A stretch of DNA of 64,000 nt from contig CANJWH010000001.1 in assembly GCA_947478465.1 (NCBI GenBank), positions 27,447-91,446 on the forward strand, given 5' to 3'. The translations under genes were made by a program, and so were the position numbers. This document shows, in pieces, positions 49,459 to 58,187 of this stretch; the stretch's first letter is position 1, and each line of letters starts with the position of its first letter. The notes beneath the pieces are model-generated. The model saw only the letters and a list, made by a program, of their open reading frames with translations. It was not told where the DNA came from and searched no databases. Source of the stretch: Bacteroidota bacterium. GTDB taxonomy: Bacteria; Bacteroidota; Bacteroidia; SXHM01.

Positions 49459-52400
49459 ATGATTAAGAGTTTAGAAAAGAAAATCTACGACTGGTCTAAA
49501 GACAGGCTCTTAATAACCGACAACATAGCTTTATACAGATTCTACCTTGCGGCAGTATTTGTTCTTGTTCCCTTTTTCACAATTCTTCTTTACGATGGCA
49601 AAATCTTGCCTATATATTCCAATATTTTTGCATCACTTGCTTCGGGATTAATACTTTTTATCAGTTATAAATCTGAAAAAGTAAAGAATAATCTTAGAGA
49701 TATTATTCACCTTCTTTTTTATAGTCTGGCGGTTTATATTTCAACTCTGGCTTATTATACAAACTATACACTCGAGTTTTCTTTTGGTTTACTGGCAATG
49801 CTATTGTTCAGCGAAATGATTATTGATACAACCAAAAGACTTTTTTGGTTTAGTGTTCCTGTTATTGTCTACAACACAGTATTATTAAGTCTTTCAGATG
49901 CAACACACATCAAAACTATATATATAATTTGTGCATTGGTAGTATTTTCTTTGTTTGTATATTTTGTTTTGCTCACCAAGATTAAATTACAAAAATCACT
50001 GGAAGAAAGCGAGAAAAAATTCAGAACAGTTATTAGTTTAAGCCCTGTAATAATCTGGGGAATTGATAAAAACGGAATAATTACTATTTCGGAAGGAAAA
50101 GGTTTAAAGTCACTTGGATATAAAGCAGGCGAAATTGTGGGCAAATCTGTGTTTGATATTAATAAAGATTTACCCGAAGCTCTCACCAACATAAAAAGAG
50201 CTTTGTCTGGAGAAACATTTGCTGCCGCTTTATGGATAGCTGATGCTTATTTGGAAACATGGTACAATCCGGTGATGGACGAAAACGGAGAGTTTGCCGG
50301 AGTTATAGGAGTAACTACTGATATTACAGAGAGAAAAATATCAGAACAGAAAATTTTACAGAACGAAGAAAAATTCCGCCTTCTTTTTTCAAAAGCGAAT
50401 GATTCGATTTTCATTATGGATAATGAAATATTTATTGATTGTAATGAAAAAACCAAGATAATGTATGGTTGTGAAGAAAAAGAGATTCTTGGAAAAACAC
50501 CGTTCTTTTTTTCGCCCGAAAAACAACCTGACGGAAGAGATTCTGCAGAAAAAAGCAAAGAAAAAATTAGTGCAGTACTTGAAGGAAAACCACAATTTTT
50601 TTATTGGAAACATAAAACAAAAAACGGAACCCTGTTTGATGCAGAAGTAAGCCTTAATCCTTTTAAAATTGATGGAAAAACACTTATTCAGGCTATTGTT
50701 CGCGACATCAGTGATAGAAAGGAAGCTGAGCGATTAATTAAAGAAAGCGAAGAGCGGTTCCGCCTACTTTCTGAGGCTACAATGGAAGGAATTGTAACTA
50801 TCGAAAACGGAATAATAGTAGATGCAAATGATCAGTATGCGCGCTTACATGGATTTATTAACAAAGAAGAAGTAGTAGGCAAAAAGATAGAAGGGTTTAT
50901 TACCCCTGACTTTATTGATATTGCTCAACACAATTTAGACAGCGGTTATCATCGTCCTTTTGTTATTAAAGCGCTTAAACGAGACGGCTCTGCGTTTACA
51001 GTAGAGGTTCGCGGACAAACCATTCCATGGTATGGAAAGACTATAAAAATTGCAACATTTACGGATATAACCGAACGCATAAGCTATGAGAATGAGTTGC
51101 GCGAAAGTCAGGAACGTTACCGTAATCATATAGAATCCTTGCCCGATGGAATTTTGATTATTGAAAACAACAAAGTGGTTTTTGCTAATGCAAGTGCCCT
51201 AAAAATACTGGGAACAACAAGCGCAAAAATTAAGCGTTCGGCACTTAGTGATTTTGTTTTACCTGAATACAAAAAAGAATATGAAAAGCTTTTTTCTAGC
51301 GTTCGGGATGACAAAGCCACAGAGTTTATTGAAATAAAAATAAGGCGCCACCTCGACAATAAAATTGCTGACATACAAGCCAACGGACGTCTTGTTAAAT
51401 TTAAAGGAGAGGAATCAATACAACTAGTTGTAAGCGATATTTCAACGCGTAAAGCGTTGGCCAGGGAACAAATGCGCGCGCAGATTGCTGAAGAAACAAA
51501 TTTACAATTACAGCGCGAAATTGTTGAGCGCAAGAAAACACAAACAAAACTGGCCACAACACAAAAATTCAACAAGAGTATCATTGAAAGCTCTTTGGAT
51601 ATGATTGTTGCAACGGATATAGATAGCCGTATTAACGAATTTAATATTGCCGCCCAAAAAACTTTTGGCTACAATAGAGAAGAGGTAATAGGGAAGCCGG
51701 TTTCTATTATTTATGCTGATGAAGAAGAATATAAACAGGTGCAGGATGTTTTACATAAAGAGGGCGTGTGTGCTCAGGAGATAGTTAACAAACGTAAAGA
51801 CGGCTCTTTGTTTATTTCATTTTTATCTGCTTCAACTCTTAAAGATGAAGACGGAAAAGTGTTTGGGGCAATGGGTGTTTCGCGTGATATTACTGCAGCA
51901 AAAAAAGCGGAAGAAGAATTAAGATTAAGCGAAGAACGCCATCGTGCGGTTTACGACCAGGCTTATATAGGTATTGCTCGTATTGGAAGGGTGGGTAGAT
52001 TCTTATTGGTAAACCAACGTCTGTGTGATATGTTTGGATACGCTTCTGAAGAGCTATACAAAAAAGCATTCTTTGAATTAACACACCCATCAGAAGTAGG
52101 AGAGAGCCTGAAAAAATGGGATGCTTTGTTAAGTGGCGAAATAAAAAATTTCACTTCAGAACAAATTTATCTGCACAAAAACGGTTCGCAGATTTATGCA
52201 AACCTTACGGTTTCGTTGGTGCGCGACACAACCGGTTCCCCCAACTATTATGTTGCCGTATTTGAAGATATAACTGTGCGCAAGCAACAGGAAAAAGAAT
52301 TGCAGGAATCTCTGAAAGAAAAAGAGGTGCTTCTGAAAGAAGTGCACCATCGCGTGAAAAATAATATGCAGGTTATATCCAGTATATTAAATCTGCAATC

Positions 52401-52920
52401 GTCATATATAAAAGACGAAGCGGCTATTGAAATGTTGAAAGAAAGTCAGGACAGAATAAAGTCAATGGCTTTTATTCACGAGAGCTTGTATCAGGGAAAA
52501 AATCTTTCGCATGTTAAGTTCTCTGAATATGTTCGCAACCTTGTGGGCAACCTTTTCCATACCTACGGCATAAATAAAAAAGGATTAAAGCTCAAGTTTG
52601 ATTTAGATGAAGTGTTCCTGAATTTGGATACTTCTATTCCATGTGGCTTAATACTCAATGAACTTATTTCAAACGCCCTTAAATATGCATTTATTGATAG
52701 AGGGGCCGGGACACTTTCTGTAACGTTGAAAAAATTAGATGGAGGAAAATTAAAGCTTGAAATAGCTGATGATGGAAAAGGTTTCCCAAAAGAAATCAAT
52801 TGGAAAGATACAGAATCACTTGGCCTGCAATTAGTGGTAACACTTGCCGGACAAATACGTGGCGATATTCAAATGGAAACAAAAAAAGGAACTACATTTA
52901 CCATCGTTTTTAACGAATAA
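49459..52920 (+). CDS. Membrane multi-PAS sensor histidine kinase (HisKA_2/HWE-type)
   Basis: 1153 aa. About 6 N-terminal TM helices, at least 5 PAS-like modules, H-box HHRVKNNMQVISSILNLQ, C-terminal HATPase_c. Confidence 0.85.
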   Translation: MIKSLEKKIYDWSKDRLLITDNIALYRFYLAAVFVLVPFFTILLYDGKILPIYSNIFASLASGLILFISYKSEKVKNNLRDIIHLLFYSLAVYISTLAYYTNYTLEFSFGLLAMLLFSEMIIDTTKRLFWFSVPVIVYNTVLLSLSDATHIKTIYIICALVVFSLFVYFVLLTKIKLQKSLEESEKKFRTVISLSPVIIWGIDKNGIITISEGKGLKSLGYKAGEIVGKSVFDINKDLPEALTNIKRALSGETFAAALWIADAYLETWYNPVMDENGEFAGVIGVTTDITERKISEQKILQNEEKFRLLFSKANDSIFIMDNEIFIDCNEKTKIMYGCEEKEILGKTPFFFSPEKQPDGRDSAEKSKEKISAVLEGKPQFFYWKHKTKNGTLFDAEVSLNPFKIDGKTLIQAIVRDISDRKEAERLIKESEERFRLLSEATMEGIVTIENGIIVDANDQYARLHGFINKEEVVGKKIEGFITPDFIDIAQHNLDSGYHRPFVIKALKRDGSAFTVEVRGQTIPWYGKTIKIATFTDITERISYENELRESQERYRNHIESLPDGILIIENNKVVFANASALKILGTTSAKIKRSALSDFVLPEYKKEYEKLFSSVRDDKATEFIEIKIRRHLDNKIADIQANGRLVKFKGEESIQLVVSDISTRKALAREQMRAQIAEETNLQLQREIVERKKTQTKLATTQKFNKSIIESSLDMIVATDIDSRINEFNIAAQKTFGYNREEVIGKPVSIIYADEEEYKQVQDVLHKEGVCAQEIVNKRKDGSLFISFLSASTLKDEDGKVFGAMGVSRDITAAKKAEEELRLSEERHRAVYDQAYIGIARIGRVGRFLLVNQRLCDMFGYASEELYKKAFFELTHPSEVGESLKKWDALLSGEIKNFTSEQIYLHKNGSQIYANLTVSLVRDTTGSPNYYVAVFEDITVRKQQEKELQESLKEKEVLLKEVHHRVKNNMQVISSILNLQSSYIKDEAAIEMLKESQDRIKSMAFIHESLYQGKNLSHVKFSEYVRNLVGNLFHTYGINKKGLKLKFDLDEVFLNLDTSIPCGLILNELISNALKYAFIDRGAGTLSVTLKKLDGGKLKLEIADDGKGFPKEINWKDTESLGLQLVVTLAGQIRGDIQMETKKGTTFTIVFNE

Positions 52921-52932
52921 AAAATACCAGAC

Positions 52933-53685
52933 ATGTCGAAAATTAACATTCTTGTGGTGGAAGACGAAAGCATTGTTGCTAAAGATATTCAGAATAGCCT
53001 CCGCAAACTTGGTTATAATGTGCCGCTAACAATTTCTTCGGGCGAAGAAGCTATTGTTGCTGCAGAAGAACATAAACCGGATTTAGTATTAATGGATATT
53101 ATGCTGAAAGGCGAACTCAGTGGTATAGAAGCTGCCGACCAGATACGCCAACGCTTTCAAATTCCGGTTATTTATCTTACAGCTTATGCAGATGAAAGCA
53201 CACTGGCTAAAGCAAAAATCACAGAACCTTATGGCTATATCATTAAACCGTTTAAGGAAATTGATTTACATACCACCATTGAAATGGCGCTTTATAAACA
53301 TGGTAAAGAAGCGCAGGTTAGAAAAGAACGTGACTTGTATTCCTCCATTGTTCGTGACACCAATTCAAACGATTCTATTTTTGTAAAATCAAACTCTCGT
53401 TTGGTAAAAGTAAAATTAGCCGATATCATGTATGTTGAGGCGCTGAAAGATTATGTGATCATTCACTGTGTTGGTGCAAAATACACCATACACTCCACCA
53501 TGAAAGATATTCAGGAAAACCTGCAGGATAAGGAGTTTATTCGCGTACACCGTTCTTTTATAGTGCGCATTGATAAAATAGCTGCTATTGATTACCCCAA
53601 CCTGGTAATGGAAGATGATAAAAAACACATTCCTATTGGTGGGTCGTACAAAGATGATTTAACAAATCGGTTAAAATTTGTTTAA
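52933..53685 (+). CDS. LytTR-family two-component response regulator
   Basis: 250 aa. REC domain (phospho-Asp context LVLMDIML) plus a C-terminal LytTR DNA-binding domain. Confidence 0.85.
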   Translation: MSKINILVVEDESIVAKDIQNSLRKLGYNVPLTISSGEEAIVAAEEHKPDLVLMDIMLKGELSGIEAADQIRQRFQIPVIYLTAYADESTLAKAKITEPYGYIIKPFKEIDLHTTIEMALYKHGKEAQVRKERDLYSSIVRDTNSNDSIFVKSNSRLVKVKLADIMYVEALKDYVIIHCVGAKYTIHSTMKDIQENLQDKEFIRVHRSFIVRIDKIAAIDYPNLVMEDDKKHIPIGGSYKDDLTNRLKFV

Positions 53686-53759: not shown

Positions 53760-53831
53760 GGTCCTGTAGTACAACGGATAGTATGGGGGTTTCCGAAACC
53801 CTTGATCCAGGTTCGATTCCTGGCGGGACCA
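53760..53831 (+). tRNA. tRNA-Arg (anticodon CCG)
   Basis: Manual cloverleaf: acceptor ggtcctg/cgggacc, D-stem gtac/gtat, anticodon stem ggggt/accct, loop ttCCGaa, T-arm ccagg-ttcgatt-cctgg. 72 nt; CCA not encoded. Confidence 0.85.
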
Positions 53832-53835
53832 CAAA

Positions 53836-54045
53836 TTAAGCAGCCTTTTTATCCGAAACCTGATTAAAAGCAAAGTTTGAGATGGTTGCAGTGTAGGTAG
53901 CATGCTCCACTGTCATGCTTACTATGTTTTTATCTGCATCCATATCTACAATAACGTTTTCAGAAATATCTTTAGTTTCTTCCACCTTATTACTATTGAA
54001 AGTAACCAGCAAGGTATCTGTGTCTTTAAAATAGGTTATAGTCAT
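53836..54045 (-). CDS. DUF2283-family small protein (antitoxin-like partner)
   Basis: 69 aa. YFKDTDTLLVTF…ENVIVDMDADKNIVSMTVEHA matches the DUF2283 pattern (Y-D-x-D-x-L-x-I…gvilDyde-G-l-GiEi). Confidence 0.7.
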   Translation of the reverse strand: MTITYFKDTDTLLVTFNSNKVEETKDISENVIVDMDADKNIVSMTVEHATYTATISNFAFNQVSDKKAA

Positions 54046-54047
54046 AA

Positions 54048-54290
54048 TTAATCCTTTTTTAGTTTAAACGAACTGTCAAAAAAAGCGTTGTGTATAGTTT
54101 CCTTATCTTCTAAAATAATAACACGTAAAAATTTATTGGCTTCTTCTATAAAAGCCCATCTTCTTATCCTTCCATCCGACTGAAGTTCTTCATAATCGGG
54201 TTTATTAAATGTTTGTTCAATCCATTCTGCTTTTATTCCTGCCCTGTCGCTCCTTTGCTTTGTGAAATAAAAATACTCAGTAAATTTCAT
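54048..54290 (-). CDS. DUF4258-family small protein (toxin-like partner)
   Basis: 80 aa. RIRRWAFIEEANKFLRVIILEDKETIHNAFFD matches the DUF4258 signature. Confidence 0.75.
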   Translation of the reverse strand: MKFTEYFYFTKQRSDRAGIKAEWIEQTFNKPDYEELQSDGRIRRWAFIEEANKFLRVIILEDKETIHNAFFDSSFKLKKD

Positions 54291-54399: not shown

Positions 54400-56208
54400 A
54401 TGAGCACAGAACTACTAAAAGGCGGAGAATTCATTATCAAAGAAACCGATTACAACAACATTTTTGTTGCCGAAGAATGGAATGAAGAACAACTCATGAT
54501 TCGTGACATGGTGAAGGATTTCTGCATGAAAGAAATTCATGGAATGGGAATAGAAAAAGCCGCTTCTCTGGATGCATCCAAAGATATGGATGTAATTGTT
54601 GGGCTGCTCGAAAAGTCGGCCGAGTTAGGTCTTTGCGGGCTTTCAATTGATGCCGAATATGGTGGAATGGATCTGGATTTCAACACAGGACTTTTGTTTG
54701 GCGAAGCTATTGCGTTAGGTTTTTCGTTTGCTACAACCATTGGCGCACAAACATCTATTGGCTCACTACCTATTGTGTTTTACGGAACAAAAGAACAGAA
54801 ACAAAAATACCTTCCGGGCATTGCCACAGCAAAACTAAAAGCATCATATTGCCTTACTGAACCTACATCCGGCTCTGATGCTAATTCTGCAAAAACAAAA
54901 GCTACACTATCTGCTGACGGAAAACACTATCTGCTTAACGGGCAAAAAATGTGGATTACCAACGGAGGCTTTGCTGATATTTTTATTGTGTTTGCAAAAA
55001 TTGAAGACGATGAAAATCTTTCTGCTTTTATAGTGGAGAAAAATTTTGGAGGCATACAGTTAGGTAAAGAAGAAAAGAAGTTGGGCATCAAAGGTTCATC
55101 TACTGTTCAGGTGTTTTTCAATGATTGCAAAGTGCCGGTAGAAAATTTATTATCTGAACGCGGTGCGGGATTTAAAATTGCACTGAACATCTTAAATACA
55201 GGTAGAATAAAACTATCGGCCGGTTCAGTAGGTGGTTCTAAGTTTGCAATTGGTCGCGCTGTAGTGTATGCAAATGAACGTTATCAATTCAAAAAACCCA
55301 TAAGTGATTTTGGGGCTATGAAATATAAAATCGGTGAAATGATTATGCGCGTTGTAGCCACCGAATCTGCCGTTTACCGCACCGGAAATTACATAGACCG
55401 TAAACAAAAGGAATTTGAAGCGCAGGGAATTGAAAAGAGTGAAGCAAAGCTAAAAGCAGTCAGAGAATATGCTGTTGAGTGTGCGATTTTAAAAGTCTAT
55501 GGTTCAGAAGTATTGGACTATACGGTTGATGAAGCTTTGCAAATTCACGGAGGAATGGGTTATGCTGTTGAAACCGGTGTTGAGATGGGTTACCGCGATG
55601 CGCGCATTACCCGAATTTACGAAGGCACCAATGAAATCAACCGCATGTTAGCTATTGCAGAATTGATGAAACGTTCATTTCAAAGCAAAGAGATAAACTT
55701 ACTTGAAGGCGGAAAGAAATTGCCAGGATTTTTGTTCATGCAAACACTTCCGTTAAAAAGCAAAGCGGGTTTTGACGAAGAAAGAAGAATAGTGCAAGGC
55801 CTTAAAAATGCATTCCTGCTTATTTCAGGTTCAGCAGGAAACAAACTAAAATTAAAGCTGGTTGACGAGCAGGAAATAATAATGAATATGGCAGACATGC
55901 TTGCTGAAGTATATATTGCAGAGTCATTGTTGCTGCGCGTTCAAAAACTTACAGCAAAGAAAGATGTTGATAAAGAACAATTAGAAGTGATGAAAAAACT
56001 GTTAAGGCTTTTCTTGTACGAGGCTTTAGCTAAAGTTCGCAAAACAGGACAAGAGGCTATTGCCAGCTATGCAACAGGTGCTGAAAAAAGTCTGATGACC
56101 GGTTTGCTGAAAATGCTTACACCTAAATTTGATGTCAACCCAAAAGATTTACGCAGAGCGGTTGCTGAGTATGCAATTAAGAAAAACGGATACCCGTTTA
56201 TTGGGTAA
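54400..56208 (+). CDS. Acyl-CoA dehydrogenase family protein (long form)
   Basis: Roughly 600 aa. ACAD middle and C-terminal domain motifs (…YCLTEPTSGSDANSAKTKA…, …QIHGGMGY…). Start trimmed to MSTELLKGG. Confidence 0.85.
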   Translation: MSTELLKGGEFIIKETDYNNIFVAEEWNEEQLMIRDMVKDFCMKEIHGMGIEKAASLDASKDMDVIVGLLEKSAELGLCGLSIDAEYGGMDLDFNTGLLFGEAIALGFSFATTIGAQTSIGSLPIVFYGTKEQKQKYLPGIATAKLKASYCLTEPTSGSDANSAKTKATLSADGKHYLLNGQKMWITNGGFADIFIVFAKIEDDENLSAFIVEKNFGGIQLGKEEKKLGIKGSSTVQVFFNDCKVPVENLLSERGAGFKIALNILNTGRIKLSAGSVGGSKFAIGRAVVYANERYQFKKPISDFGAMKYKIGEMIMRVVATESAVYRTGNYIDRKQKEFEAQGIEKSEAKLKAVREYAVECAILKVYGSEVLDYTVDEALQIHGGMGYAVETGVEMGYRDARITRIYEGTNEINRMLAIAELMKRSFQSKEINLLEGGKKLPGFLFMQTLPLKSKAGFDEERRIVQGLKNAFLLISGSAGNKLKLKLVDEQEIIMNMADMLAEVYIAESLLLRVQKLTAKKDVDKEQLEVMKKLLRLFLYEALAKVRKTGQEAIASYATGAEKSLMTGLLKMLTPKFDVNPKDLRRAVAEYAIKKNGYPFIG

Positions 56209-56581
56209 TTGCTGTTACTTCTATTTCCACTACTAAATCAGGGTCGATAAGCGCTGTTACTTCAACCAAAGTTGCAGCGGGTTTTATTTCCCTGAAAAAT
56301 TCTCCGTGCGCTTTACCAACTTCTTCCCATTTTGAAATATCGGTAACAAATATGCGCGTGCGAACCACATCATTTAAGGTTGCGTCTGCTTCATTTAAAG
56401 CGGTTTCAATTTTTTGAATGATATATTTTGTTTGTTCATAAGCATTGCCCGGGGAAATTATTCTTTCTCCTTCAGTTGCAGTTGTTCCGGCTACCTCAAT
56501 AATGTTTCCAACCCTAACAGCGCGACTATACCCAACAATATTCTCCCACTTTGTACCCGAAGAAATGTTTTGTCTACTCAT
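56198..56581 (-). CDS. RidA/YjgF-family reactive-intermediate deaminase
   Basis: 127 aa. Characteristic YjgF C-terminus (…RTRIFVTDISKWEEVGKAHGEFF…PAATLVEVTALIDPDLVVEIE). Confidence 0.85.
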   Translation of the reverse strand: MSRQNISSGTKWENIVGYSRAVRVGNIIEVAGTTATEGERIISPGNAYEQTKYIIQKIETALNEADATLNDVVRTRIFVTDISKWEEVGKAHGEFFREIKPAATLVEVTALIDPDLVVEIEVTAITQ

Positions 56582-56844
56582 TTTTTATCGCTGTTGCTTT
56601 GTTTAATTTCCCTTGCAATGGTTGAAAAATATTCCACTTCTCCCTTTTCGTTTTTATGTGCAATAATTACCTGCGAAACCGGTATTTCCTTTCCTTCTAA
56701 TGTAAGCAAAGCGGTTTCGCCTCTCCAAATTCCATGCTTTACAGAATAAGGAATGGCCTCATCAGCAATGTATCGAACAGCCCAGCCCGGTTGCAAATCC
56801 TTAATCTTTAATTTGTCTTTATCTAACTCGTCTGAATATACCAA
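56578..56844 (-). CDS. Hypothetical 88-aa protein
   Basis: Small ORF coupled to RidA (ATGA overlap). No recognised motif; its start overlaps the REC gene end. Confidence 0.4.
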   Translation of the reverse strand: MVYSDELDKDKLKIKDLQPGWAVRYIADEAIPYSVKHGIWRGETALLTLEGKEIPVSQVIIAHKNEKGEVEYFSTIAREIKQSNSDKK

Positions 56845-57430
56845 GCATTTTTTTACCTGCAGAATTAATGTACTGGCTTACATAGTCAGTTCCTGAAATA
56901 CCAACAAAGTCAGATGTAGATTCTAAAATGGTATTAAGTAGTTGGCTGCGTTTAAGTAAAAAATCTAACTGTTGTGCGCGATGCTTAAGTTCTATTTCGT
57001 TTTTACGCAACTCTTCAAGTGCAGCGTCTTTTTCATTTTGTATTTCTCTTTTTTTCAATACAGCATTAATTGCGTGAGGCAGGCGCTTAAGATTATTTTT
57101 CATTACATAATCATCAACCCCCTGCTTCAAAAATTCAATAACAACATCTTCTGACAATTCGCCAGAAATCAAAATAAAAGGAATATCAAGATTTTCCAAT
57201 TCAAGCAACTTAAATGCATGAAGGGCATTAAAACCCGGAAGACTGTAGTCTGCAATAATAATGTGTGGTCGAAATGCCTGAACCTGTGGAATAAAGTCGT
57301 GTCGCGAAGAATGAACATGAGCCTCAAACAGCATTTCCGACAGAGTTAATTCTTCCAGCATAATATCTGCATCTGCCGGAATATCTTCTAATATAAAAAC
57401 CCTGTATTTTTTATTACTCATTACTGCCAT
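56819..57430 (-). CDS. Single-domain response regulator (REC) with C-terminal coiled-coil extension
   Basis: REC features (ILEDIP…IIIADYSLPG…). No DNA-binding output domain. Start trimmed to MAVMSNKKY. Confidence 0.7.
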   Translation of the reverse strand: MAVMSNKKYRVFILEDIPADADIMLEELTLSEMLFEAHVHSSRHDFIPQVQAFRPHIIIADYSLPGFNALHAFKLLELENLDIPFILISGELSEDVVIEFLKQGVDDYVMKNNLKRLPHAINAVLKKREIQNEKDAALEELRKNEIELKHRAQQLDFLLKRSQLLNTILESTSDFVGISGTDYVSQYINSAGKKMLGIFRRVR

Positions 57431-57435
57431 AAAGA

Positions 57436-57468
57436 TAAAAAAAGCCCGCGAATTCACGCGGGCTTTTT
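57436..57468. terminator. Bidirectional terminator between the HATPase-only gene and the REC gene
   Basis: aaaaaaagcccgcg-aattca-cgcgggcttttt. Confidence 0.6.
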
Positions 57469-57494
57469 CGTTTAATAACATTGAAAAATAATAT

Positions 57495-58085
57495 CTATGT
57501 TACAGAGCCTACAGGTATATTAACTTTCAGAGTGAAATAAGATTTCTTGTCGCTCAGTTTACGAAAGTCGTATTCAAATTTATTGGATGATTTGCGAGTT
57601 ATATCTAGTAAACCTAAACCAGCCCCGCCTTTATCGCTAAACTCCATATTAGACATGAGTTCTTTGTACTTATCTCTTATTTCATCAGGATTCAAATTGT
57701 TAATATGTTCAAGCTTTTCTTTCAAATATGCTGTTTTCTCATTATCCATCATATTTCCGGTGATAATAAAGAAGCTTGTTTCGTTTCTTCCAATAAGCAA
57801 AATAGAAGATTCGTGGTCTTTACCTTTTTCGGGTTCGGCATGCCGACTCACATTTTGTAAGCACTCTACCAAAACATTAAAAACCTTTTTCTTTATTTTT
57901 TTCTCCTCGTCAAAACCAATCATCTTTGAGTCGACCATAGCAATAAGCTGGTCAGAGGTTTCCTCATTAATATTATCTTTATAGGCAAGCAGCAGTTGGT
58001 TTTCAACCATCATGCGCTCAATACCATATATCTGGTCAACAAGTTTAAAATACTTGTTGTTTTCGGGGGTGTTCTGTGTGGGCAT
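57495..58085 (-). CDS. Stand-alone HATPase_c (GHKL) domain protein, putative Ser/Thr kinase (RsbW/SiaB-like)
   Basis: 196 aa. N-box-like LQNVSRHA and G2-box GGAGLGLLDI. No HisKA or sensor domain. Confidence 0.55.
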   Translation of the reverse strand: MPTQNTPENNKYFKLVDQIYGIERMMVENQLLLAYKDNINEETSDQLIAMVDSKMIGFDEEKKIKKKVFNVLVECLQNVSRHAEPEKGKDHESSILLIGRNETSFFIITGNMMDNEKTAYLKEKLEHINNLNPDEIRDKYKELMSNMEFSDKGGAGLGLLDITRKSSNKFEYDFRKLSDKKSYFTLKVNIPVGSVT

Positions 58086-58187
58086 ACAGAAAACGATTAT
58101 GTTAACTCGGCACTAAAATAACTTATAATATCGACACCATAACGTTATTTATCTAAATAATGTTACGACACTTATTTATCTGCAATA

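Follow-up and report, generated by a model that had tools for sequence, protein, structure and literature searches.

Our findings resolve a short signalling locus in a 64,000-nucleotide (nt) stretch of contig CANJWH010000001.1 from a Bacteroidota bacterium (assembly GCA_947478465.1), hereafter the window, into two genes: one for a serine/threonine (Ser/Thr) kinase of the SiaB family, and one for a response regulator composed of a receiver (REC) domain, a long helix and a PAS domain, which is followed by a RidA gene. An earlier note on this DNA had read the same region as a partner-switching-type module of three proteins, namely a kinase-like protein of 196 amino acids (aa), a receiver-only regulator and an 88-aa orphan. 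All three open reading frames (ORFs) are indeed present on the minus strand, but the 88-aa ORF turns out to encode the C-terminal half of a PAS domain that belongs to the REC gene, from which a one-base insertion has severed it. On balance we favor, with a confidence that only modestly exceeds an even chance, two separate neighboring signalling genes over a three-protein module: an orphan SiaB-type kinase and a probably separately transcribed REC-PAS-RidA unit that is disrupted here. The locus is an ordinary and already annotatable one, belonging to an unlinked and undescribed subclade of a known family, and the main value of the analysis lies in a correction, by which a "REC-only regulator" and an "88-aa orphan" become a single frameshifted REC-PAS gene.

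The 196-aa protein is a SiaB-family kinase

The 196-aa ORF encodes a Ser/Thr kinase with a GHKL fold, a member of the SiaB family and of the SpoIIAB/RsbW type, whose activity is predicted from its sequence. The protein passed the NCBIfam model NF038262 ("SiaB family protein kinase") with 145.4 bits (cut-off 85) and Pfam DUF6272 (PF19788) with 135.9 bits (cut-off 26.6), whereas its 68.6 bits on the SiaB equivalog model NF038264 lie below the cut-off of 225. The earlier note had placed the protein in HATPase_c; Pfam HATPase_c gave no match at E < 0.1, and the family is instead DUF6272/SiaB_fam_kinase. Its description of a SiaB/RsbW-like architecture agrees with ours, as does the lack of a HisKA or sensor domain in the Pfam scan. 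The sole meaningful sequence match in the PDB was 6KKO_A (E = 7.8e-14), the Pseudomonas aeruginosa SiaB of the SiaB-SiaC complex, in whose alignment VECLQN lies over IEMTQN and GGAGLGLLDI over SGAGLGLLDI. This recovers both motifs that had been proposed, the N-box with E74 and N78 (nt 57852-57866) and the G2-box K152-G-G-A-G-L-G158 (nt 57612-57632). Close relatives are already named "SiaB family protein kinase" at NCBI, and a literature search returned no paper mentioning DUF6272.

In sets of 38 and 83 homologues the residues of the two boxes either do not vary or show at least 95% conservation, and in the larger set (n = 83) conservation of at least 95% extends to V73, E74, Q77, N78, H82, G110, N111, K152, G153, G156, L157, G158 and D161. 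Catalytic and ATP-binding residues are kept in all 83 family members compared, including orphans that lack an adjoining siaC gene. E74 aligns with Glu61, the predicted catalytic residue of SiaB (PMC7647112). An AlphaFold2 (AF2) model built with 38 homologues (predicted local distance difference test score, pLDDT, 82; predicted template modeling score, pTM, 0.77) found its best fold match in 6KKO_A SiaB (E = 5.6e-10; template modeling (TM) scores 0.73/0.84), followed by SpoIIAB, UsfX and RsbW. The ratio of nonsynonymous to synonymous substitution rates (dN/dS) is 0.02-0.06 among orthologues and 0.064 between the window and the relative L017 (loci of the comparison set carry numbers with the prefix L), which amounts to strong purifying selection, and the ORF is intact in every good-quality relative. 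An indel at position 57503 distinguishes the window from L010, whose kinase has 194 aa; the window keeps the common 196-aa form.

If the kinase works as its relatives do, which is likely, it would bind ATP by means of its N-box (E74, N78) and G2-box lid, and a kinase dimer would phosphorylate a Thr or Ser of a SiaC-type substrate, a small STAS-like switch protein whose phosphorylated form could not bind its target. By analogy with these relatives, the kinase probably still phosphorylates a SiaC/STAS-like switch protein encoded elsewhere. Neither this substrate nor a PP2C phosphatase to oppose the kinase has a gene nearby, and both would act in trans.

One extra T splits a REC-PAS regulator

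The neighboring regulator, when repaired, is a REC domain followed by a helix of ~59 residues and a PAS domain. Frame A, which carries the REC domain, ends in ...INSAGKKMLGIFRRVR and a stop, and frame B goes on as ...YSDELDKDKLKIKDLQPGW...; in the protein alignment the two frames join at ...KKMLGI and SDE..., where each orthologue is a single ORF (274-292 aa) that reads ...AGKKMLGI(T/A/S)DE...LQPGW... without interruption. The split is due to an extra T (minus strand GGTATA[T]TCAGAC) that is missing, by DNA alignment, from L010, L011 and L013, which are ~96% identical to the window over the 2-kb region, as well as from L001 and L004, and it is missing from all other good-quality orthologues. 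It truncates the regulator in the middle of the PAS domain, after residue 195, and adds an out-of-frame tail of 5 residues. The REC ORF and the 88-aa ORF form a pair, then, because a single frameshift divides one gene, and since the 88-aa ORF belongs to the PAS domain of that gene, the REC protein is not without a C-terminal domain, as had been claimed when it was described as having no output domain. The conserved start of the regulator is the ATG at 57421 (MSNKKYR), whereas the listed start at 57481 runs through a hairpin and is not conserved.

The window copy is either a recent pseudogene or the product of an assembly error. A general assembly problem in the window is not supported, as a comparison with L010 over 8.7 kb revealed two uncompensated coding indels of which only the extra T of the regulator is disruptive, a pattern that would still accommodate an isolated error. 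Programmed frameshifting was considered and rejected: the extra T is absent from the three ~96%-identical relatives and the other orthologues, and GGUAUAUUCAGA at the split is no known slippery or stop-stimulated motif. In a separate metagenomic contig, L097 (JGI 3300056624, Ga0558117_00822), the gene order is the same but nearly all genes are frameshifted, including those for an amine oxidase, TrhA, the kinase and REC-PAS, and this looks like an error-prone assembly. Splits of the regulator can be artefacts, because this frameshift-ridden contig splits the same gene.

The receiver scored 46.4 bits on PF00072 (cut-off 30.2). In a 28-sequence REC alignment headed by the ortholog P0122, in which the window protein is not a row, E12, D13 and K108 (P0122 numbering) show no variation, and the acceptor, D58, is conserved to at least 90%; by offset from P0122 the corresponding window residues are E12, D13, D57 and K107, and Ser85 was identified by eye from the sequence. 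On the repaired regulator Pfam PAS_9 reached 16.8 bits, below its cut-off of 27, and the PAS assignment draws on the match of an orthologue profile to the MmoS PAS domain in the PDB (3EWK, 4.9e-9) and on an AF2 model of P0122 (pLDDT 85), a protein 88% identical to the repaired window regulator, whose TM scores to the PAS domains of NifL and CPS_1291 are 0.79-0.84. Homologues at 32-39% identity continue beyond the PAS domain with HisKA_3-HATPase or GGDEF domains, whereas the window regulator stops at the PAS domain. We propose that the acceptor Asp (D57 by offset) would be phosphorylated by some histidine kinase, and that the output would consist of protein-protein contacts made through the helix and the PAS domain.

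Two candidate links from the regulator to partner switching were rejected. A His in the helix (ELKHRAQQL) might have served as a phosphorylation site used in trans by the HATPase-like protein, but it is unconserved in the wider homologue alignment and carries no HisKA signature. The receiver motif PGFNA, likened to the SiaC site YFNTAS, is a generic motif of the REC beta3-alpha3 region, where REC homologues show no variation at P62 and F64. Elsewhere in the window, 49459-53685 encodes a histidine kinase of 1153 aa with at least 6 PAS domains and HisKA_2/HATPase_c, followed by a LytTR response regulator, and this pair is kept ~3.5 kb from the REC-PAS gene in L001 and L004; no evidence was found that this histidine kinase is the cognate kinase of REC-PAS.

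That the whole locus is decaying, with both genes reduced to non-functional remnants of a former SiaABC-type cluster, might be suggested by a regulator that is frameshifted here and lost in some relatives. We regard it as scarcely credible, given a kinase that is intact in every good-quality relative at the low dN/dS cited above, and a REC-PAS gene that has a dN/dS of 0.05-0.16 where it is intact.

A hairpin and a promoter-like motif lie between the two genes

The earlier note held that a strong terminator separates the genes and that they are independently transcribed. On the first part, the 71-nt spacer between kinase and regulator does carry a strong, terminator-like hairpin of 13 pairs, 7 of them G-C, followed by a U-tract, and the spacer RNA folds with -24.2 kcal/mol (z = -4.7). 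L001 and L014 also carry a hairpin at this place, its stem differing in sequence, and L004/L094 carry a weaker one; Rfam returned only sub-threshold matches here, to terminator-ending leaders and small RNAs. The hairpin ends 16 nt ahead of the regulator ATG. The -7 promoter consensus of Bacteroidetes is TAnnTTTG, and TATCTTTA, a candidate promoter element for the regulator, lies directly past the U-tract, 9 nt ahead of the start codon; at this position L004/L094 have TATCTTTG, a perfect TAnnTTTG. The second part, independent transcription, is plausible, because the conserved hairpin and U-tract directly precede the conserved -7-like motif, and the kinase gene is probably monocistronic. A perfect -7 motif, TAAATTTG, also occurs inside the kinase ORF (57575-57582). 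The synonymous divergence (dS) between the window and L010, its closest relative, is very uneven, at 0.41 in the kinase gene and 0.078 in the adjoining REC-PAS gene, and this sharp difference suggests a recombination boundary near the hairpin.

The kinase family is partnered with SiaC and PP2C

The characterized SiaABCD system of P. aeruginosa pairs SiaB with SiaC and a PP2C phosphatase (PMC7278518, PMC7647112, PMC8457831). To place the window kinase among its homologues, of which 3178 clusters were found at E <= 1e-3 among 50%-identity representatives, the family loci were scanned in one genome per GTDB species, which gave 80 loci, and a metagenome scan added 5. At 65 of the 80 loci the next gene downstream is siaC, in the same orientation and almost always no more than 75 bp away; the encoded proteins have 120-129 aa, sampled ones scored 100-148 bits on Pfam SiaC (PF09345), and most contain the phosphorylation-site motif YFNT(A/S)SS. 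At 32 of the 80 a large sensor protein with a terminal SpoIIE/PP2C domain is encoded directly upstream. Of 10 representatives that were either the longest or of odd length, six proved to be DUF6272x2-SiaC fusions and a seventh a Reg_prop-Y_Y_Y-SpoIIE-DUF6272x2 fusion, and none of the 10 is fused to REC or PAS. Linkage and the sampled fusions run to SiaC and PP2C and not to REC, which marks these two proteins as the evolutionary partners of the kinase family and matches the SiaABCD system of P. aeruginosa.

No such partner was found near the window kinase, in agreement with the earlier note. The Pfam scan took in the ORFs of the 32-64 kb half and, for the remainder, most ORFs of 110-200 aa, with the larger ORFs of the first 32 kb and two ORFs overlapping longer ones outside it, and among the scanned ORFs there was no STAS, PP2C, SpoIIE or GGDEF domain. 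A six-frame search of the whole 64 kb with a PP2C hidden Markov model (HMM) found no SiaA-type PP2C. The note had proposed a check for SiaC (DUF1987), and the six-frame HMM scan of the window gave nothing better than E = 0.18; SiaC is also lacking in the flanks of the clade relatives, and the motif YFNT(A/S)S is absent from every frame of the window.

In a neighbor-joining tree all members without an adjoining siaC form one clade, which comprises the window group, a solo group at 45-47% identity (L006-9, L018-23, L032) and L025/L027, and which also takes in the second kinase of a SiaB-SiaC-SiaB2 triplet (L076). Only two positions consistently separate orphan from SiaC-linked kinases, 37 (D versus G) and 160 (L versus I), and on this basis the substrate surface of the orphans shows no sign of remodeling. 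A single metagenome-assembled genome (MAG), GCA_945870105.1, holds three orphans, L014, L006 and L027, of which L014 is a close relative of the window. A coherent Bacteroidia subclade of SiaB-family kinases that is unlinked from SiaC and PP2C, has several paralogues per genome, and retains an intact and constrained active site is a modest new point. Since the unlinked subclade retains such a site, a SiaB-type switch may also work in trans or with a different partner.

We also considered that the orphan kinase is chiefly a binding protein, a sequestering factor similar to an anti-sigma factor or anti-adaptor, which uses ATP as a conformational cofactor and has no dedicated phospho-substrate. 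It shares its fold with the anti-sigma factors SpoIIAB, RsbW and UsfX, and the substrate gene is unlinked in three paralogous orphan lineages. We think it distinctly unlikely, however, as the catalytic Glu and the full ATP motifs are conserved as strictly as in SiaC-linked kinases, no sigma factor gene adjoins the kinase, and characterized SiaB binds no sigma factor (PMC7278518).

The MAGs with the closest genomic relatives of the window (GCA_945870105.1, with L014/L006/L027, and CAMDBK, with L017/L018) are labeled 'Chitinophaga pinensis', which looks like a mis-assignment, and each holds two or three orphan SiaB-family paralogues; other close relatives are labeled merely 'Bacteroidia bacterium'. 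Two further observations concern the family at large. Its top-scoring representatives are tandem double-DUF6272 proteins of ~360-385 aa, covalent pseudo-dimers (P0213-P0361; L071 5962-7077; L075; L098 1-924), and the larger fusions reach ~505 aa (DUF6272x2-SiaC) and 1371 aa (Reg_prop-Y_Y_Y-SpoIIE-DUF6272x2). In addition, many Cytophagales and Marinilabiliales loci (L026 1-11600, L029, L030, L033, L038, L041-43, L050, L061, L066, L073, L089) share a cluster of CheR, CheB, a GAF protein, a dCache-HAMP-GAF-PAS-SpoIIE sensor phosphatase, SiaB and SiaC, which continues with a fused ABC transporter (~1030 aa) and two further proteins of unknown nature (~300 and ~145 aa). This switch appears to be tied to chemotaxis-like methylation enzymes and a transporter, and not to a diguanylate cyclase.

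Neighbors or partners

Several observations weigh against regarding the kinase and REC-PAS as mere neighbors. The order kinase, REC-PAS, RidA recurs in ~9 distinct lineages (L001/15, L004/5, L010-13, L014, L016, L094/95, L097, L098, L101), with kinase and regulator on the same strand and 71-75 nt apart. Their adjacency holds even where kinase identity has dropped to 76% and regulator identity to 66%, and it survives rearrangement of the upstream neighbor (L004/L094 versus L001). Kinase and REC-PAS share a phyletic pattern, because every REC-PAS orthologue whose surroundings were read adjoins this kinase subclade and the next-best REC-PAS homologues are at most 39% identical. The regulator occupies the position held elsewhere by siaC. 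Moreover, the separate-genes reading has to posit a SiaC/STAS partner in trans, beyond the window and the flanks of relatives that were searched, and it presupposes a kinase activity that is predicted from conservation.

These points, together with the purifying selection on both genes and the lack of SiaC and PP2C in the window and in the flanks of relatives, would fit a dedicated module in which REC-PAS replaced SiaC as partner of the kinase, either as its Ser/Thr substrate or as a phosphorylation-controlled regulator of it, with two-component input to a partner switch. REC-controlled kinases of the RsbW type are known: in SypE of Vibrio fischeri and HsbR of P. aeruginosa, REC, an RsbW-like kinase and PP2C are joined in one polypeptide that acts on a STAS protein. 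If the REC-PAS neighbor were a true partner, two-component and partner-switch signalling would be linked here. We nevertheless hold such a module to be unlikely. The kinase is kept where REC-PAS is deleted, with RidA directly after the kinase (L017, with a spacer of 28 nt that has no hairpin, and L100), where a convergent 430-aa gene takes the place of REC-PAS and RidA (L099, kinase 88% identical), and where REC-PAS is frameshifted, as in the window; kinase ORFs or matches are full-length and intact in L099 and L100, and the constraint on the kinase was measured in L017. The conserved terminator-like hairpin and the promoter-like motif stand between the genes, the fusions seen in the family are to SiaC and PP2C and not to REC or PAS, the substrate surface is not visibly remodeled in the orphans, and sister orphan clades have no REC neighbor. 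Adjacency itself is weak evidence, because the relatives are largely collinear over at least 10 kb.

A narrower form, in which a Bacteroidia-specific SiaB-type subfamily swapped SiaC for REC-PAS and the kinase directly phosphorylates or sequesters the receiver protein, strikes us as a little less probable again than the binding-protein explanation discussed above; if true, it would be a previously undescribed junction of partner-switching and His-Asp signalling. REC-PAS is dispensable next to a retained kinase, any coupling of the two proteins is optional at most, and the present evidence leans against an obligatory link. A dedicated three-protein module as in the earlier note is not supported. 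Since the kinase has its ATP-binding residues and most close relatives carry the genes side by side, the idea is weakened, though not refuted, by a family whose partners are SiaC and PP2C and by a REC-PAS gene that is lost, replaced or frameshifted while the kinase is intact.

Comparison with characterized systems

The closest known counterpart of the window kinase is P. aeruginosa SiaB (PDB 6KKO; PMC7278518, PMC7647112, PMC8457831), with which it shares the NF038262 family, the fold, 25% identity, a similar size, the predicted catalytic Glu (E61 in SiaB, E74 in the window), the N-box Asn, the GxGxG lid, and the absence of sensor and HisKA domains. Unlike SiaB, it remains below the equivalog cut-off, has no adjacent gene for SiaC (DUF1987), the SiaA PP2C or the SiaD diguanylate cyclase, possesses a 20-residue helical extension at the N-terminus, and is probably encoded alone. 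The Bacteroidota SiaA-SiaB-SiaC clusters (e.g., L026, L043, L089) belong to the same phylum and their kinase domains are 35-45% identical to that of the window, but there PP2C sensor, kinase and SiaC are encoded together as an operon, with CheR/CheB/GAF genes and the fused ABC transporter often on its flanks; the subclade of the window has lost all of these links. The anti-sigma-type GHKL-fold Ser/Thr kinases of the SpoIIAB/SpoIIAA and RsbW/RsbV pairs are similar in fold (Foldseek probability 1.0, query-normalized TM 0.45-0.52) at an identity of only 8-12%, and the window kinase has no gene for a STAS antagonist, a sigma factor or a PP2C close by. In SypE and HsbR a receiver is associated with an RsbW-like kinase, so that control of a partner switch by a two-component input has precedents; in the window, in contrast, REC-PAS is a separate and dispensable gene without PP2C.

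For the regulator, the orthologue profile matched the REC domain and long helix of LvrB (PDB 8VC9) at E = 2.6e-39, and the REC-PAS-HisKA_3/GGDEF regulators at 32-39% identity share the full-length REC-PAS part. Both kinds of protein carry a catalytic output, a histidine kinase or GGDEF domain, whereas the window regulator ends after the PAS domain; it scored 68 bits on the NCBIfam LvrB model NF047466, below the cut-off of 500, and HisKA/HATPase is absent from it.

Layout of the locus and its surroundings

From 56198 to 58187 every gene is on the minus strand, in the order kinase, spacer, split regulator, RidA (Table 1). The RidA start overlaps the regulator stop by 4 nt, and for this reason the two genes are probably co-transcribed, as judged from the sequence; RidA follows REC-PAS in all relatives that possess REC-PAS. 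The gene upstream of the kinase encodes a TrhA/hemolysin-III homologue, and a convergent acyl-CoA dehydrogenase gene lies downstream. In the intergenic region upstream of the kinase a -7-like motif stands ~30 nt ahead of the ATG, and its assignment as a putative promoter follows from the Bacteroidetes consensus TAnnTTTG.

Table 1. Coordinates of genes, domains and sequence elements of the kinase and REC-PAS locus within the window.
Feature	Position	Strand	Description or basis
Kinase ORF, 196 aa	57495-58085	-	SiaB-family (DUF6272) GHKL-fold Ser/Thr kinase gene
ORF listed as 220 aa	56819-57481	-	REC part of the split regulator
88-aa ORF	56578-56844	-	Overlaps the 220-aa ORF in another frame
Whole response-regulator gene, REC / long helix / PAS	56578-57421	-	Orthologue alignment; ~280 aa when repaired
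REC domain	~57101-57421	-	Pfam
Helix, ~59 residues	~56924-57100	-	Part of the repaired regulator
PAS domain	~56608-56908	-	Profile and ortholog model
Frameshift site, extra T	56835/56836	-	DNA alignment with relatives; plus-strand positions
RidA (YjgF/L-PSP) gene	56198-56581	-	Pfam Ribonuc_L-PSP, 101 bits
Intrinsic-terminator-like hairpin and U-tract	57431-57469, stem 57438-57469	-	25 nt past the kinase stop codon
-7-like promoter motif TATCTTTA	57430-57437	-	Motif search
Kinase-upstream intergenic region	58086-58187	-	Alignment with relatives and sequence reading

Between the trhA stop and the kinase start, 58140-58165 forms an AT-rich imperfect palindrome of 26 nt with one mismatch, TAACGTTATTTA-TC-TAAATAATGTTA, whose sequence is shared by L010/11/13 but not by L001/L004, where it has diverged; it may serve as an operator or as the terminator of trhA. 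Further along the window, a tRNA-Arg(CCG) gene (53760-53832) is followed by a minus-strand pair encoding a DUF2283 protein (53836-54045) and an 80-aa protein without a Pfam match (54048-54290). In L001 and L004 only ~190 nt separate the LytTR regulator gene from the acyl-CoA dehydrogenase gene at the place of this tRNA-adjacent pair, and 53760-54290 looks like a small toxin-antitoxin-like insertion beside a tRNA.

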